Source of the DNA: an uncultured bacterium
GTDB taxonomy: Bacteria > Actinomycetota > Acidimicrobiia > Spongiisociales > UBA4744
Length of the DNA: 34,955 nucleotides
Direction: 5' to 3'
NCBI GenBank assembly: GCA_965549635.1
Contig: CBEVHI010000003.1
Coordinates: 1-34,955, forward strand
Shown in pieces: positions 8,225-28,539 of this stretch. Made by a program: the position numbers and the translations under genes. The first letter of the stretch is position 1. Each line of letters begins with the position of its first letter. The notes beneath the pieces are model-generated. The model did no database searches. It saw only the letters and a program-made list of their open reading frames with translations, and was not told the origin of the DNA.

Positions 8225-8507
8225 CCCGGTGAGTGCTCGGCACCCCGAGCACTCCATAGCGAGCATGTATGCGGAGTTGGATTCAAATCCAAGCCCTCGG
8301 CCGATTAGTACCGGTCAGCTCAACGCATTGCTGCGCTTACACATCCGGCCTATCAACCTGGTCATCTACCAGGGGCCTTACCCGATTTGTTCGGTGGGAG
8401 ATCTCATCTTGAGGTGGGCTTCACACTTAGATGCCTTCAGCGCTTATCCCTTCCGTACTTAGCTAACCAGCCATGCCCTTGGCAGGACAACTGGCACACC
8501 AGAGGTA

Positions 8508-8541
<34 letters not shown>

Positions 8542-8566
8542 CCCCGCAAATCTCCTACGCCCGCGA

Positions 8567-8598
<32 letters not shown>

Positions 8599-8617
8599 AA
8601 ACCCAGCTCGCGTGCCG

Positions 8618-8699
<82 letters not shown>

Positions 8700-8723
8700 C
8701 CGTCGATATGGACTCTTGGGCGC

Positions 8724-8754
<31 letters not shown>

Positions 8755-8884
8755 GCCGATGAGCCATGGCGCTTCCACATGCCACCATGGGATCATTAAG
8801 CCCGACTTTCGTCCCTGCTCGACTTGTAAGTCTCGCAGTCAAGCTCCCTTGTGCCTTTACACTCAACGCCTGATTGCCGACCAG

Positions 8885-8926
<42 letters not shown>

Positions 8927-9205
8927 CACCGCCCCAGTGAAACTGCCCACCAGGCACTGTCCCTGATCCGGATAACGGATCGAGGTTAGAAGCCCGCTAT
9001 ACGAAGGGTGGTATTTCAAGGGTGACTCCACGCCAGCTGACGCCAACGCTTCCAAGTCTCCCACCTATCCTACACATCGTATATCAGACTCCAATGCCAA
9101 GTTGCAGTAAAGGTTCCGGGGTCTTTCCGTCCTGTCGCGGGTAGTGAGCATCTTTACTCACAATGCAATTTCGCCGAGTCCCTGGTTGAGACAGTGCCCA
9201 AGTCG

Positions 9206-10002
<797 letters not shown>

Positions 10003-10896
10003 GACTTCAGAGCTTCGCCTTACGGCTAACCCCTCCGCTTGACCTTCCGGCACCGGGCAGGCGTCAGAGCGTATACGTCGTCTTGCGACTTAGCACGCTC
10101 CTGTGTTTTTAGTAAACAGTCGCTTGGGCCTGGTTTCTGCGGCCCCCTCAGGCTTCGGACGCAAGTCCTACACCTTACCGGGGCGCCCCTTCTCCCGAAG
10201 TTACGGGGCCAATTTGCCGAGTTCCTTAACCAGGGTTCTCTCGCTCGCCTTGGTATTCTCTACCTGTCCACCTGTGTCGGTTTGGGGTACGGGCGCCTGC
10301 GCACTCACTAGAGGTTTTTCTAGGCGGCTTGGGCGTTCAGCGGCTTCGCCTGAATCGGCTCGGCATCGTGCCTCGGGAACACGAGGTCCGGATTTGCCTA
10401 GACCTCTCCCTACACACTTACCCCGGGTCAACCAACGCCCGGGTCCGCTTACCCTTCCGCGTCACCCCATTGTTCGCCTACTACCAGCGGGGTCGGTAGG
10501 CCCCGAAGGGCTTTCCTTAGCACACTGGGTTTGGCCGGATCGCACGCGAGGCGGTACGGGAATATCAACCCGTTGTCCATCGATTACGCCTTTCGGCCTC
10601 ACCTTAGGTCCCGACTAACCCTGGGCGGACGAACCTTCCCCAGGAACCCTTGGACATCCGGCGGAGGAGATTCTCACTCCTCTTTCGCTACTCATGCCGG
10701 CATTCGCACTCGGGCAGCCTCCACGGCTGGCTCACGCCGCCGCTTCGAGGGCTGCTCGACGCTCCCCTACCGATCCTGTCGCCTGGACCCACACCTCGAG
10801 AGGTATGGGTCGAGCTCATGACAGAATCCCGCAGCTTCGGCACCGAACTTGAGCCCCGTTACATTTTCCGCGCAGAATCACTCGACCAGTGAGCTG

Positions 10897-10945
<49 letters not shown>

Positions 10946-11513
10946 TTGGGCGACTCCACATCGTTTCCCACTAAGTTCGGATTTAGGGGCCTTAGCTGGC
11001 GGTCTGGGCTGTTTCCCTTTCGACTACGAAGCTCATCCCCCGCAGTCTGACTGCTGTATTCTAAAGCCATGAGATTCGGAGTTTGACTGGGGTCAGTAAG
11101 CTTGTTGGCCCCCTAGCCCAATCAGTGCTCTACCCCCATGGCGAAACATACAACGCTAGCCCTAAAGCTATTTCGGGGAGAACCAGCTATCACCGAGTTT
11201 GCTTGGCCTTTCACCCCTATCCACAGGTCATCCCCCAAGTTTTCAACCTTGGTGGGTTCGGGCCTCCACGAGGTCTTACCCTCGCTTCACCCTGCCCATG
11301 GATAGATCACTCGGATTCGGGTCCAGGACACGCGACTCGACGCCCTATTCAGACTCGCTTTCGCTGCGGCTTCGGCACACGCCTTAACCTTGCCACGTAT
11401 CGCTGACTCGCCGGCTCATTCTTCAAAAGGCAGGCGGTTAGGGATCAATGATCCCCTCCCACTGCTTGTAGGTCCACGATTTCAGGTTCTCTTTCACTCC
11501 CCTCACCGGGGTG

Positions 11514-11555
<42 letters not shown>

Positions 11556-12095
11556 TAGGAAGTACTTAGCCTTACGAGGTGGTCCTCGCAGATTCACACG
11601 GGATATCCCCCGTGATACTTGGGAACTCCACCAGGAGATCGATGCGCTTTCGCCTACAGGGCTGTTACCTTCTGCGGCCCGTCGTTCCAGACAGGTTCAG
11701 CTCACGCTCGATTTTGTGACTCCTTGACGGCTCCGATGCGCCGTCGGGTGGGTCCCACGACCTCGGTATGGCAACACCATCGGGTTATTCCACCACACCG
11801 GTTTAGGCTCATTCCCTTTCGCTCGCCGCTACTCGGGAAGTCGTTGTTACTTTCTTTTCCTCGGGGTACTGAGATGTTTCAATTCCCCCGGTTCCCTCTA
11901 CCGGCCCTATATATTCAGACCGGAGTGACTGGGCATTACCCCAGACGGGTTTCCCCATTCGGATATCCCCGGATCGAAGCTCGCTTGACAGCTCCCCGGG
12001 GCTTTTCGCAGCCTGCCGCGTCCTTCTTCGGCTCCTAGCGCCAAGGCATCCATCGTAGACCCTTAGTAGCTTGGATAGATAGAATCCAAAACGTT

Positions 12096-12127
12096 ATACA
12101 TGCTCGCTATGCAGTTCTCAAGGTGCC
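12096..12127 (-). promoter_or_regulatory. Spacer boxA and 5' arm of the 23S processing stalk
   Basis: GGCACCTTGAGAAC is boxA-like. CATAGCGAGCATGTAT (12096-12111) is a perfect 16-bp complement of 8255-8270 downstream of 23S. Confidence 0.8.
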
Positions 12128-12271
12128 GTCAAGAGAGACGATCAATATGACCGAACTCCCTCACAACTAAACAGCGTGCCTCATTTGACCATCCGAAACA
12201 AGTCCGAGTGGCCAACATCGTCAGTAAATCAACTAAGAGCTATGAGGCCTAAGCCTCGTTGTTGCTCCTTA

Positions 12272-13802
<1,531 letters not shown>

Positions 13803-13945
13803 ACAGATTCAGGCTCCCCAAAAGGGTTGCCCTCGAACTGTCAGAGAGATTTCCTAGTTGCGCCTCGAGCTTGACATCCCGAGACGCGCCTTGGAGTACG
13901 TCCATCCCGAGCGGCGAACCGCCGAGGATGGATTACTGACTATTT

Positions 13946-13971
13946 GGCACGCTGTTTAGTTGTCAAGGAGC
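13946..13971 (-). promoter_or_regulatory. rrn leader boxA and 5' arm of the 16S processing stalk
   Basis: GCTCCTTGACAAC is boxA-like. 13946-13963 is a perfect 18-bp complement of 12163-12180 in the ITS. Confidence 0.8.
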
Positions 13972-14084
13972 CCGGAGCGCTCAGACAGCGTCTGGGCAGC
14001 GTTCCAACCCCTGGAGGTTTCGACTCGCCCCACCGACTCGTGTCGGCAGGCACCGATCCCGGCGGGCGACCCCCGGGGGATGGA

Positions 14085-14112
14085 ACTGTAACCGTTTCCC
14101 CACCGATGTCAA
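14085..14112 (-). promoter_or_regulatory. rrn sigma-A promoter
   Basis: TTGACA-N16-TACAGT on the minus strand upstream of leader boxA. Confidence 0.8.
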
Positions 14113-14279: not shown

Positions 14280-15467
14280 TCAGTCCGAGGCGAGCCTCAT
14301 ACGGGCGTACCGACGCTTGCCGACTTGAAGTGTGGCACCGGCCAACGCAGAGCTTGGCAGAGTCTCCTCGAGTACCTTCTCGCCATCGACCTTCACCGCG
14401 CCCTGGGCAATCAGGCGCCTGGCATCGCTCGAGCTGTTGGCCAGCCCGTGCTCTCGCAGGAAGCCGGGGAGCCAGACCTCTTCCCCTTCGGGCAAGGTGA
14501 GCTCGGGGGCGTCGTCCGGCACCTCGTGGCGCTTGAACAGAAGATCGAAGGAGGCTTCAGCCGCCGCGGCTGCTTCGTCTCCCCAGTAGATGCCGACAAT
14601 CTGTGCGGCCAGTCGTCGTTTGGTCTCTCCCGGATGTAGCGAGCCGTCGGCGAGACCACGGGCGACGCCGCCCAGCTCTTCCTCTGTCATGTCGGTGCAC
14701 AACTCGAAGTAGGAGACAATCAGCTCGTCGGGGATGCTCATGAGCTTGCCGAACATGTCGCCGGCAGGTTCGTCGATCGCCACGTAGTTGCCCAGAGATT
14801 GCGACATCTTGTGAACACCGTCTGTCCCGAGGAGCAGCGGCATTGTCATCGGAATCTGGGGATCCTGGCCGGCGCGCTCCTGCAGCACCCTGCCCACCAT
14901 GAGGTTCCACAGCTGATCCGCGCCGCCCAGTTCGACATCGGCCTCCACAGCCACGGAATCCATACCCTGGAGAAGCGGATAGAGGAACTCCATCAGGGAG
15001 ATCGGCTGGTTGGCCTCGTATCGCTTGGCGAAGTCCCCCCGCTCGAGCATCTGGGCCACGGTCACCTGCGACGTCAACTCGAGGATCTCTCTCATATCCA
15101 GCGCTCCCAGCCACTCCGAGTTGTAGCGAATCTCCAGCGGCTCGGGGAGAAGGACCTTTCGGAACCCACCCAGAAGGTTCTCGGCGTACCGGGCCACTTC
15201 CTCGGCAGAGAGACGCCGGCGAGTTTCGCTCTTGCCCGAAGGGTCCCCCACCTGAGCGGTGAAGTCACCCACGATCAGCACAGCGGTGTGTCCGAACTCC
15301 TGGAACTCCCTGAGCTTTCGCAGTACCACAGCCCAACCCAGGGTCACCGCCGGAGCGGTCGGATCCAGACCCAACTTGATCCTCAACGGCCTCCCCAACG
15401 CAAGCTTGCGCTCCAGTGCTTCCTCTGTGACGACCCGCTCGGTGCCTCGCAACAGCTCGGTCAGCAT
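14280..15467 (-). CDS. tyrS: Tyrosine--tRNA ligase (type II-like, C-terminal S4 domain) with atypical signature motifs
   Basis: KLGLDPTA, GDFTAQVGDPSGKS, FLYPLLQG-DS, ELGG-DQ, KMSQSLGN and S4 domain. GAGGAGG SD before ATG 15467. Confidence 0.93.
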   Translation of the reverse strand: MLTELLRGTERVVTEEALERKLALGRPLRIKLGLDPTAPAVTLGWAVVLRKLREFQEFGHTAVLIVGDFTAQVGDPSGKSETRRRLSAEEVARYAENLLGGFRKVLLPEPLEIRYNSEWLGALDMREILELTSQVTVAQMLERGDFAKRYEANQPISLMEFLYPLLQGMDSVAVEADVELGGADQLWNLMVGRVLQERAGQDPQIPMTMPLLLGTDGVHKMSQSLGNYVAIDEPAGDMFGKLMSIPDELIVSYFELCTDMTEEELGGVARGLADGSLHPGETKRRLAAQIVGIYWGDEAAAAAEASFDLLFKRHEVPDDAPELTLPEGEEVWLPGFLREHGLANSSSDARRLIAQGAVKVDGEKVLEETLPSSALAGATLQVGKRRYARMRLASD

Positions 15468-15652
15468 GCATCCTCCTCGGTTGCGCAGGTTAGTGCCGGA
15501 CCCTCCGCGAACTGAAGGCACCCGCACAAGGCGACCCGGTCGACGGGAGCACCAAATCCCTGTCTTCCACCGACAGGTCGGTACGCTGGCTGCGACAGTG
15601 GTGCGCCGTCGCGATGGCCAAGCGGGACGGTGGATCGCCACCCGGGAAGGCT

Positions 15653-18037
15653 ATGAAGCGCTGGTTGCTACTCCTTGCCGGCTTCTCGCTGCTGGCGGCA
15701 GCGTGCGGCCTGCAGCCGATCGATGACCCTGGACTGGGCACTCGGGGTCTGACTTCGCTCGTCTACGCCGCTGACGGCTCGATACTCGCGCAGTGGCACG
15801 CCGAAGAGGACCGCGTGCTGGTCGGCTTCGACGAGCTTCCCCGCTCGCTCATCGATGCCGTCGTGGCCATCGAGGATGAGCGCTACTGGGAGCACGCCGG
15901 CGTCGATCTTCGGGCGCTGGCTCGTGCCATCGTCGCGAACCTCGACGCCGGCGGAGTCGTCCAGGGGGCCTCCACCATCACCCAGCAGTACCTCAAGAAC
16001 GTGGTGTTGACCCCCGAGGTCACACTCGACCGCAAGCTGACCGAGGCGGCCCTGGCTCTTCGGCTCGAGGAGGGCCTCACGAAGGAGGAGATCCTCGAGC
16101 GATACCTCAACACGGTCTACTTCGGCGATGGCGCATACGGCGTGGGAACTGCTGCCGCACACTTTTTTGCGAAGTCCCCCGCAGACCTGACACCTGGCGA
16201 GTCGGCGCTTCTGGCGGCTCTCATACAATCGCCTTCCGACACCGATCCTTATCGCCATCCTGAAGACGCACTGCGCCGCCGCAGGGTGGTCCTTGACAAG
16301 ATGGTCGAGCTTGGCTGGCTCACACCCTTCGATGCAGAGTCCGCCGACCAGGAGCCTCTCAGCCTGAGTCCGCGCACGAGCACCCAGCAGGAGCGCTATC
16401 CCTACTTCACCGAGGAGGTCAAGCGCCGTCTTCTCGCCGATCCAGCACTGGGACCGACCGCCCAGGATCGGTACAACGCGCTGTTCCGCGGAGGCCTCCG
16501 GATCTACACGACCATCGATCCTGCGGTCCAGGAGGCGGCCCGTGCCGCCGTGGACTCCGTGATCGAAGGAGAGCATCCCTCGGCTGCCGTCGCAGCCGTA
16601 GACCCTCGCACCGGACATGTGCTCGCACTCGTGGGTGGACGAGACTTCTATGACCCGAAGGATCCGCACGCCCAGTTCAACCTCGCGGTGCAAGGTCGAC
16701 GCCAGCCAGGATCGGCCTTCAAGCCGTTCACTCTTGCTGCCGCTCTCGAACACGGTCTCACGCTCGACTCGGTGTTTCAGGGCGGACGTTCCATCACCAT
16801 TGAGACCGATTCCGGCCCCTGGACCGTCCAGAACTACAACGAAGCAGCATTTCCCAACCTGACGCTCCTCGAAGGCACGGTGTACAGCGTGAATGTCGTC
16901 TACGCTCAGGTCGTCAACCTCGTCGGCGCCGAACACGTCGTCGATGTCGCAGAGGCGGCCGGTATCGACCAGGATCTGCAGCCCTTCGACTCCATCGCCC
17001 TCGGAGCACAAGAGGTTTCTCCCTTGGACATGGCTTCTGCGTACGGGACGTTCGCCGCGGACGGCATCCACGTAGACCCCATCTTCGTGACCTCGATCGA
17101 GACACATGACGGAATCAACATCTGGGAACCCGTCCCGGTCGTCACCGAAGCGATGGACAAGAGCATCGCTCAATCGGTGACCGCCGCTCTCACCGAGACG
17201 GTGCTGCGCGGCACGGGTCAGCAGGCCAAGATTGGCCGACCGATCGCCGGCAAGACCGGTACCTCTCAACAGCACAGGGATGCGTGGTTCGTCGGCTACA
17301 CCCCCGAGCTCTCGGCAGCGGTATGGGTGGGGTATGCGGAGGGACAGGTGGCCATGGAGCCCCCCACCACACCGTTCACCATCACCGGAGGAACGTGGCC
17401 TGCGCAGATCTGGGCACGCTTCGCATCCGGCGCGCTTGCGGGCACTCCCTACGGCCAGCTCCCCACAGCAGACACCGAGGGCATGGTCACCGTCGAGGTC
17501 GATCTGTCCACCGGGTTCCTCGCCGGACCCTACTGCCCGAGATCCCACGTCGCTCGGATCAGGGTACCGGCCGACCAGGTGCCAACGGTGGTCTGCCCGG
17601 TGCACAATCCAGCCGGAGTCGTCGAAGCAGGTGCGGCAACCGTGCCCGACGTGATCGGTCTCGACCTCGGATCTGCGGTCGAAGCACTCACGACAGCCGG
17701 CTTCACGAACCGCATCGACTGGAGTGATGGAGGCTCGCTGGCACAGGGAACCGTGTTCAATCAGAGTCCTTCCGCCGGAGTCCCCGCTCAGGCCGGGAGC
17801 CAGGTGCGTCTCGTTGTTGCCGGCCCTGAACCCGGTTCCACTGTTCCTTCGGTGCTTGGTTTTCCTGTCGATCAGGCCACAGCGGAGCTCCAGGCCATCG
17901 GAGTGGCTGTCGAGGTCATCACCGAAGCCGAGGCGAACCCGAACGATGCGGCGCGCCGAAGCGGCGTCGTCTGGAAACAGCAACCCGCGCCGGGATCACC
18001 CGCCGGGCCTCCGGTGCGGATCTGGGCAAACCCCTAG
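15653..18037 (+). CDS. Class A penicillin-binding protein (transglycosylase + transpeptidase) with C-terminal PASTA domains
   Basis: EDERYWEHAGVD, GASTITQQ, RKLTE, KEEILERYLN; SAFK, SVN and KTG; PDVIGL and PSVLGF PASTA starts. ATG 15653 preferred as start. Confidence 0.93.
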   Translation: MKRWLLLLAGFSLLAAACGLQPIDDPGLGTRGLTSLVYAADGSILAQWHAEEDRVLVGFDELPRSLIDAVVAIEDERYWEHAGVDLRALARAIVANLDAGGVVQGASTITQQYLKNVVLTPEVTLDRKLTEAALALRLEEGLTKEEILERYLNTVYFGDGAYGVGTAAAHFFAKSPADLTPGESALLAALIQSPSDTDPYRHPEDALRRRRVVLDKMVELGWLTPFDAESADQEPLSLSPRTSTQQERYPYFTEEVKRRLLADPALGPTAQDRYNALFRGGLRIYTTIDPAVQEAARAAVDSVIEGEHPSAAVAAVDPRTGHVLALVGGRDFYDPKDPHAQFNLAVQGRRQPGSAFKPFTLAAALEHGLTLDSVFQGGRSITIETDSGPWTVQNYNEAAFPNLTLLEGTVYSVNVVYAQVVNLVGAEHVVDVAEAAGIDQDLQPFDSIALGAQEVSPLDMASAYGTFAADGIHVDPIFVTSIETHDGINIWEPVPVVTEAMDKSIAQSVTAALTETVLRGTGQQAKIGRPIAGKTGTSQQHRDAWFVGYTPELSAAVWVGYAEGQVAMEPPTTPFTITGGTWPAQIWARFASGALAGTPYGQLPTADTEGMVTVEVDLSTGFLAGPYCPRSHVARIRVPADQVPTVVCPVHNPAGVVEAGAATVPDVIGLDLGSAVEALTTAGFTNRIDWSDGGSLAQGTVFNQSPSAGVPAQAGSQVRLVVAGPEPGSTVPSVLGFPVDQATAELQAIGVAVEVITEAEANPNDAARRSGVVWKQQPAPGSPAGPPVRIWANP

Positions 18038-28345: not shown

Positions 28346-28390
28346 AGTTCACCTCTGCTGACTGGGCGAGCGCGCACGAACGCGAGACGC

Positions 28391-28505
28391 CCTCCTTCTC
28401 TCATCCGGACTGTCACCGTCGGCCCCGGAGTTCCACCGGATCCACCCCGAAGGGGTCGCGGGCTTTCACCGCCGGTCGGGAATCGCACCCTGCCCTGAAG
28501 GGGGC
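28391..28505 (-). ncRNA. FMN riboswitch
   Basis: CTTCAGGGCAGGGTGCGATTCCCGACCGGCGGT...AGCCCGCGA...CCGACGGTGACAGTCCGGATGAGAGAAG directly upstream of ribD. TACACT -10 at 28514-28519. Confidence 0.97.
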
Positions 28506-28539
28506 TGTGTGTCAGTGTAGTGCCGTATCCGGAGGAGCT

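Follow-up and report, generated by a model that had tools for sequence, protein, structure and literature searches.

Tyrosyl-tRNA synthetase (TyrRS) was the enzyme in which the roles of the two class I signature motifs, HIGH (generally written HxGH) and KMSKS, were first worked out by mutagenesis. His48 of the Bacillus stearothermophilus enzyme acts at the ATP ribose. Published accounts describe His45 of that enzyme as catalytic and its K230FGKT234 loop as stabilising the transition state, place both KMSKS lysines in contact with the ATP phosphates and, for E. coli TyrRS, the HIGH motif in contact with the ATP gamma-phosphate (Kobayashi 2005). Here we describe a tyrS gene whose product (P0001, 395 amino acids, aa) departs from this scheme at three catalytic positions: HIGH reads TLGW and KMSKS reads KMSQS. 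It is encoded on the minus strand at positions 14280..15467 of a stretch of 34,955 nucleotides (nt), hereafter the window, from an uncultured bacterium of the Acidimicrobiia (Actinomycetota; contig CBEVHI010000003.1 of assembly GCA_965549635.1). Comparison with related sequences leads us to consider it probable (about 0.78) that this protein is the sole working housekeeping TyrRS of its genome and a member of a large natural subfamily in which the HIGH histidine pair and the second KMSKS lysine have been replaced as a fixed set.

Read on the minus strand from the ATG at 15467 to 14280, the gene comprises 395 codons without an internal stop. T42-L-G-W45 (ACC CTG GGT TGG, 15333..15344) follows DPTAPAV and lies opposite the HLGH of Thermus thermophilus TyrRS (structure 1h3e), while the loop K220-M-S-Q223-S (14796..14810) lies opposite its KMSKS. 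DQLWN (residues 184-188, 14904..14918), with W187 in place of the usual F, is found opposite DQRFN, and QGMDS (residues 167-171, 14955..14969) opposite QAYDS. The latter forms part of the tyrosine-pocket stretch YPLLQGMDS (14955..14981), in which Y163, Q167 and D170 are kept. The triplet R83-R84-R85 occupies 15213..15221, and R83, an invariant Arg, aligns with R86 of the B. stearothermophilus enzyme. All these elements are on the minus strand. Retranslation reproduced exactly the four motifs (TLGW, KMSQS, DQLWN and QGMDS), and the positions of the first two, as given in an earlier examination of this DNA from its letters only, hereafter the sequence-only reading.

P0001 scores 337.9 bits on the tyrS equivalog model TIGR00234, whose cut-off is 113.8, with an alignment that takes in profile positions 12-404 out of 406, and contains the PF00579 catalytic domain (211.5 bits). 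Its S4 domain is full length: a C-terminal S4-like tRNA-binding domain is recognised at residues 332-365 (14373..14474, minus strand; PF01479, 30.2 bits, cut-off 22.8). The protein aligns end to end with 1h3e (HMMER, E 4.9e-99, 44% identity), T. thermophilus TyrRS being what we take to be the bacterial 'type 2' or TyrZ-like form, and it falls below the cut-off of the archaeal/eukaryal TyrRS model NF006330 (77.9 bits versus 220). An AlphaFold model has a mean predicted local distance difference test score (pLDDT) of 94.1 and a predicted template modelling score of 0.89, and overlays over its full length on T. thermophilus TyrRS (9sdf and 1h3e) with template modelling scores of 0.88-0.89; its softest region, residues 71-90, is the loop which includes K79 and R83-R85 (mean pLDDT 70-79). 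As modelled, the architecture is that of a bacterial TyrRS, with a Rossmann catalytic domain, a helical domain and the C-terminal S4-like domain. P0001 fails both class I sequence signatures: only the Gly of HxGH is kept, and KMSKS retains the first Lys, the Met and both Ser and has lost the second Lys. Descent and fold nevertheless place it among the class I enzymes. We found no description of a TyrRS with the KMSQS/TLGW signature in a literature search whose coverage left subscription journals largely aside, and a bacterial TyrRS failing the class I signatures at three catalytic positions appears to be an undescribed variant of a known family.

The variant is not confined to the window. We assembled two sets of 120 representative sequences: set 1 contains the cluster representatives closest to P0001 (65-100% identity), those with names coming from metagenome-assembled genomes (MAGs) of Acidimicrobiia/Actinomycetota, and set 2 was obtained from a homolog search with a variant from another Actinomycetota family (the second lineage). 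The HIGH motif in set 1 reads TLGW in 114 members, HLGW in five and TFGW in one, and all 120 have KMSQS. Set 2 includes 119 TLGW and one TFGW, with 119 KMSQS and one KRSQS. Trp at the fourth position of HIGH (HIGH-4) and Gln at the fourth position of KMSKS (KMSKS-4) are therefore present in 240 of 240 sequences, while the first position, HIGH-1, is Thr in 235 and His in five. This W/Q pair is retained down to about 45% identity. Among species-representative contigs, 10 of 80 loci carry TLGW, nine with KMSQS and one (L010) with VMGQS, and species-representative proteins at 51% identity or less show HxGH/KMSKS or other variants. Two single sequences have also lost the first KMSKS lysine: L010, from an Actinomycetota MAG, which combines TLGW with R-VMGQS, and L018, from a MAG labelled Acetothermia, which combines TLGH with SMSQS-R.

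The distribution was extended by searching genomes with the back-translated pattern DPTxxxxTLGW. This occurs in 87 of the 201 genomes of the window's class. Four of the matches (G024, G051, G055 and G131) are located outside the TyrRS gene and were rejected as chance occurrences; the remaining 83 span families f1, f2, f4-f8, f12 and f13, and include 43 of the 47 members of f12, whose genomes are about 1 Mb. At the level of the phylum the pattern is found in 44 of 301 genomes, a count which takes in nine unpublished genomes (G273, G289, G317, G349, G384, G409, G433, G480 and G491) and includes three off-target matches in f14. Families added in this way are f46 (20 of 21 genomes), f53 (5 of 9), f59 (9 of 17) and f88. 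Eight of these phylum matches were fetched, one of them (L128) from the unpublished G409, and all eight lie inside TyrRS genes with KMSQS, at 53-60% identity to P0001. Two MAGs titled Chthonomonas sp. and Gammaproteobacteria also carry the variant as their only TyrRS, and the pattern, which covers the HIGH motif only, occurs in 5 of 61 genomes of the phylum of the Chthonomonas-titled MAG. The search for DPT.{4}TLGW which the sequence-only reading had proposed thus leads, after filtering, to 83 of 201 genomes of the class, to further Actinomycetota families and to at least two phyla.

We then asked which parts of the active site accompany these changes. An alignment of 65 sequences, mixing variant and canonical TyrRS and including P0001, shows K31, G33, D35, G44, G74-D75-P76, R83, Y163, D170, Q185, N188, K220, M221 and S224 as invariant, with Q167 conserved in at least 90%. 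The tyrosine-pocket residues D75, Y163, Q167 and D170 correspond by alignment to D78, Y169, Q173 and D176 of B. stearothermophilus TyrRS, and 1h3e agrees. The changes therefore leave untouched the tyrosine pocket and the HIGH Gly, as well as the first lysine of KMSKS and the GDPSG...R arginine, and the view that the pocket had been retained holds across the alignment. Common to all W/Q enzymes are the Trp at HIGH-4, the Gln at KMSKS-4 and a Val or Ile just before the HIGH motif. Within the clade HIGH-1 alternates between Thr and His, which takes two nucleotide changes, but W and Q remain constant.

Other differences that had been listed with these are of narrower scope. D184, Q185 and N188 of DQLWN are conserved as invariant residues, and position 187 is W in 120 of 120 members of set 1 and F in 120 of 120 members of set 2; DQLWN is thus present, as had been noted, but it is not general, W187 being fixed only in the sub-lineage of the window. 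QGMDS, which had been counted among the rewritten motifs, also occurs in canonical HIGH/KMSKS proteins (e.g. P0136 and P0196) and is ordinary variation at a position that varies in canonical enzymes too. The window's sub-lineage adds R84/R85, W187, M159 and Q72, where the second lineage has P84, Q85, F187 and R72. Of the 120 sequences of set 1, 112 have a basic residue at position 84 and 119 have R at position 85; the corresponding residues in set 2 are P at position 84 (76 of 120) and Q at position 85 (110 of 120), and position 84 is basic in only two of the eight fetched members from outside the Acidimicrobiia. The core of the earlier proposal, a coordinated remodelling of the ATP site, fares better: T, W and Q co-occur across hundreds of sequences, which supports the idea that the ATP-site changes represent a coordinated and selected set and not noise.

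The background against which the variant occurs is itself diverse. Forty TyrRS genes fetched from the class fall into three kinds: 10 are TLGW/KMSQS, 13 are of the T. thermophilus type with KMSKS (nine H[LV]GF and four HxGH) and 17 are of the other bacterial type (DQWGN and KFGKS/T, with 11 HxGN and six HxGH). HxGH is present in only 10 of the 40, the rest reading HxGN, HLGF or TLGW. The altered HIGH motif that had drawn attention to this gene is real as TLGW, but the loss of His at HIGH-4 is in itself common, since 30 of the 40 enzymes of the class are without HxGH. The three kinds occur one per genome. Family f3, which belongs to the window's own order, has the DQWGN/KFxKS type, mostly with HxGN, in place of TLGW/KMSQS, and this implies gene displacement within the order.

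The source assembly (G000; 98.2% complete, 421 contigs) yields two PF00579 matches, tyrS and a 334-aa tryptophanyl-tRNA synthetase (TrpRS) with GGIHIGN and KMSKS, whose score on the tyrS model is only 33.6 bits; apart from this TrpRS match, no second TyrRS was found in the assembly at E values up to 10. A crude scan of its open reading frames (ORFs) for K-M-S-x-S, in that spelling only, identified four further enzymes. Each of them has KMSKS, and three read H-[MI]-G-[HN]. The tRNA-Tyr(GTA) of the genome is of the normal bacterial type (83 nt, G1-C72, A73 and a long variable arm). At E<=1e-15, a survey of the window's order, covering 121 genomes with a completeness of at least 90% and including the unpublished G202 and G205, found one TyrRS gene in 117 and no match in four; the sole double match, in G263, consists of two pieces of one TyrRS gene. 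A single TyrRS was also found in five of five checked variant-bearing genomes of other Actinomycetota families and in both variant MAGs filed under other phyla. The check for a second tyrS suggested by the sequence-only reading therefore found none in G000, leaving the variant enzyme as the sole TyrRS. These data bear directly on the idea of a degenerate or moonlighting paralog, with a canonical tyrS elsewhere charging the tRNA. Only the loss of the three signature residues speaks for such a paralog, and we consider it excluded for practical purposes by the lack of a second TyrRS in G000, the single gene carried by 117 of the order's 121 surveyed genomes, the full-length C-terminal tRNA-binding domain and the conserved position of the gene next to the rRNA operon (rrn). 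An origin of the motifs in sequencing or assembly error is still less credible and was likewise excluded, as the motif recurs at the codon level, and independently, in hundreds of assemblies of varied sources.

Two further explanations accept a working enzyme and differ on why it changed; we regard both as unlikely. According to one, which the sequence-only reading had raised, the ATP site was remodelled for lower affinity to a natural TyrRS inhibitor of the adenylate mimic or nucleoside sulfamate type, giving an intrinsically resistant subfamily. There are parallels in other class I enzymes: in housekeeping IleRS2, a naturally altered HIGH motif (GxHH) raises resistance to mupirocin as much as 1000-fold (Brkic et al. 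2023, Nat Commun 14:5498), and human TyrRS is described as less hijacked by a nucleoside sulfamate, a property put down to greater mobility of its KMSSS loop. However, there is no second, sensitive TyrRS copy, and the window offers no biosynthetic or transporter context, tyrS having the rrn operon on one side and a PBP1A-like gene on the other. The situation thus differs from that of self-resistant or second-copy aminoacyl-tRNA synthetases (IleRS2 as a second gene, AgnB2), tyrS being single copy and without a biosynthetic cluster. Moreover, entire families, among them those with genomes of about 1 Mb, show the variant in fixed form, and it occurs in at least two phyla, so that an old neutral-to-beneficial variant fits better than a local arms race; the proposed resistant subfamily thus finds no support in these data. 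The other explanation invokes a slower TyrRS, in which relaxed selection on turnover in slow-growing lineages with small genomes would have allowed drift followed by lock-in, without any new catalytic device. All members are indeed uncultured and many have small genomes (about 1 Mb in f12, 2-3.5 Mb elsewhere), His at HIGH-4 is lost in 30 of the 40 TyrRS of the class, and IleRS2 has been noted to occur by preference in bacteria that grow more slowly (Brkic et al. 2023, Nat Commun 14:5498). Drift would be expected to scatter residues, yet the W/Q pair is present in 240 of 240 sequences and kept to about 45% identity, and HIGH-1 varies between T and H inside the clade with W and Q fixed.

The strict conservation of W and Q, the single copy and the invariance of the rest of the active site together point to a subfamily of working TyrRS, an enzyme which its lineage appears to have kept in function and for which we predict TyrRS activity. 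Most likely, the ATP/pyrophosphate site of P0001 has been neutralised, to judge from the residues that were exchanged. Since K79, R83, K220, D184-Q185 and the tyrosine pocket are intact, tyrosyl adenylate (Tyr-AMP) would be formed in the usual way, through in-line attack on ATP. K79, R83 and K220 (K82, R86 and K230 of B. stearothermophilus TyrRS by alignment), together with Mg2+, would hold the leaving pyrophosphate, and the lost charged contacts would be replaced by neutral hydrogen-bond donors, namely the Thr hydroxyl, the Trp indole NH and the Gln amide. By analogy with human TyrRS, a monovalent cation may supply the missing charge; potassium reportedly replaces, in functional terms, the second KMSKS lysine of the human enzyme, to go by the title of work by Austin and First (2002). 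R84/R85 may also contribute charge, in the window's sub-lineage only.

The two positions at which the W/Q enzymes are fixed may be linked more widely. Our survey covered 145 TyrRS representatives (50% identity) with both motifs aligned; five fragments and the query had been dropped. The second KMSKS lysine is lost in 19, and none of these has an intact HxGH: nine lack only His-4, nine lack both histidines and one lacks only His-1. Among the 126 which keep the lysine, 110 have HxGH. The pairings observed are xLGW with KMSQS, HLGY with KM[SG]QS and H[IV]GR with KMS[TS]S. From this raw association, HIGH-4 and KMSKS-4 look coupled, in that loss of the lysine comes with an altered HIGH motif. Human TyrRS, which reads 49-HVAY-52 and 222-KMSSS-226, fits the pairing rule, combining loss of the second lysine with an altered HIGH-4. 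Among other eukaryotes, KMSAS is given for the yeast enzyme and HIAQ/KMSKS for that of Plasmodium falciparum, in which His-4 is lost and the lysine kept. The combination of H[IVL]GR with KMS[TS]S is carried by P0175, P0215, P0216 and P0265 (640-714 aa), P0166 and L076. The charge looks relocated in the P0175 group, which has an Arg at HIGH-4 and is without the second lysine of KMSKS. Four of the H[IVL]GR enzymes are extended by a long stretch at the N-terminus.

A broader proposal, which we put forward only tentatively and as a whole, is that the W/Q enzymes represent a third, undescribed signature state of bacterial TyrRS, in which neither a HIGH histidine nor the second KMSKS lysine would serve to stabilise the transition state and the enzyme would rely on a bound cation and neutral donors with the Trp packed on the ATP ribose or adenine; that HIGH-4 and KMSKS-4 are locked to each other by epistasis in all TyrRS, the human enzyme included; and that poor binding of adenylate mimics, or poor susceptibility to nucleoside-sulfamate hijacking, might be a by-product of this state.

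Several observations weigh against these interpretations. Mutagenesis of B. stearothermophilus TyrRS reportedly led to large rate losses at H45 and K233, so that a set of neutral replacements is not obviously sufficient for catalysis. R84/R85 was considered as a general compensation and rejected, because it is absent from the second lineage. All variant members found come from uncultured genomes or metagenomes. As to the coupling of the two motifs, the association is not established once the tree is taken into account: the supported branches provide only three independent contrasts, too few for significance (sign test p of 0.5 or more). The W/Q rows are scattered in the trees, and an approximately unbiased (AU) test imposing one origin on 20 sampled rows gave a log-likelihood difference of 4.46 (p 0.47); a single origin of the W/Q pair is thus not rejected.

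The Shine-Dalgarno sequence of tyrS, GAGGAGGA, is located at 15471..15478 (minus strand), 3 nt 5' of the ATG, and the 16S rRNA gene (12273..13802, minus strand) lies directly downstream, followed on the same strand by the 23S and 5S genes; the intact reading frame, the tyrS-rrn locus and the strong ribosome-binding site had all been described from the sequence and are seen as such. Of 10 related loci, 6 show the order tyrS-16S; in two more the roughly 3 kb of DNA that lies downstream holds no rRNA gene, and the last two have too little flanking sequence for a judgement. This conserved synteny supports the view that the position next to rrn is the usual location of tyrS in the lineage. The spacer between tyrS and the 16S gene includes two sigma-70-like promoter matches (13939..14112, minus strand), which are consensus matches only; two such sites were observed where 0.2 were expected from shuffled sequences, and they are probable rrn promoters. 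An Rfam scan of the window at gathering thresholds, which returned the rRNAs and, elsewhere, a flavin mononucleotide (FMN) riboswitch (RF00050, 108.5 bits, 28389..28506, minus strand), included no T-box or other known leader RNA 5' of tyrS. Divergent from tyrS is an 807-aa ORF (15614..18037, plus strand), which by eye from its translation resembles a PBP1A-like class A penicillin-binding protein. There is no tRNA gene in the 16S-23S spacer (12077..12272) nor elsewhere in the window.

The 23S rRNA gene of the same operon also has a distinctive feature. Its match (8285..12076, minus strand) spans 3792 nt for a model of 2925 positions, and only 48% of positions 8900..10400 align to E. coli 23S rRNA. 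This region includes a sub-threshold match to the group I intron family RF00028 (24.8 bits, E 0.0024, 9262..9475) and a 207-aa ORF (9299..9922, minus strand) encoding a LAGLIDADG homing endonuclease (PF00961, 3e-21). Unaligned stretches are found at the same place in relatives, of about 300 nt in G023 and about 1,050 nt in G134, as against about 720 nt in the window. The 23S gene is probably intron-bearing, as judged from these matches.

A large natural lineage whose sole TyrRS is without counterparts of H45, H48 and K233 would mean that the textbook catalytic set is not obligatory. The natural contrast between T/W/Q and H/H/K offers a system in which the coupling of the two class I motifs can be measured, and the variant could show whether the cation solution of human TyrRS arose independently in bacteria. 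It also has practical consequences, since annotation based on motifs and inhibitor design that assume HxGH and KMSKS would misjudge enzymes that are common in uncultured Actinomycetota.

How, then, does this enzyme compare with those already described? T. thermophilus TyrRS (1h3e, 9sdf) agrees with it in the tyrosine pocket and the first lysine of KMSKS, and also in DPT, GDPSG..R and DQ..N; P0001 differs in having TLGW and KMSQS for HLGH and KMSKS, as well as V41, R84/R85 and W187. B. stearothermophilus TyrRS, whose classical mutants (T40, H45, H48, K82, R86, K230 and K233) serve as the reference for the roles of these residues, is of type 1 (DQWGN, KFGKT), and relative to it P0001 carries the equivalents of H45T, H48W and K233Q together. 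Bacterial TrpRS with TIGN, a sister class Ic enzyme, tolerates Thr at HIGH-1; the TrpRS of this genome reads HIGN with KMSKS and belongs to a different substrate family. IleRS2 with its GxHH motif resembles P0001 as a natural and widespread housekeeping class I enzyme in which an altered HIGH is accommodated by surrounding changes (Nat Commun 14:5498). It differs in that positions 1 and 3 are swapped, the histidines are kept and an antibiotic effect has been demonstrated, whereas P0001 has lost both histidines and is not known to be linked to any inhibitor. The human and yeast TyrRS share with P0001 the absence of the second KMSKS lysine, and the human enzyme also has an aromatic residue at HIGH-4 (HVAY). 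Unlike P0001, human TyrRS belongs to the archaeal/eukaryal lineage, keeps His at HIGH-1 and has Ser and not Gln at KMSKS-4. The likeness of P0001 to human TyrRS, as read from the two sequences, is one of convergence and not of membership; nevertheless, the human enzyme would provide the best functional analogy for the TyrRS described here.

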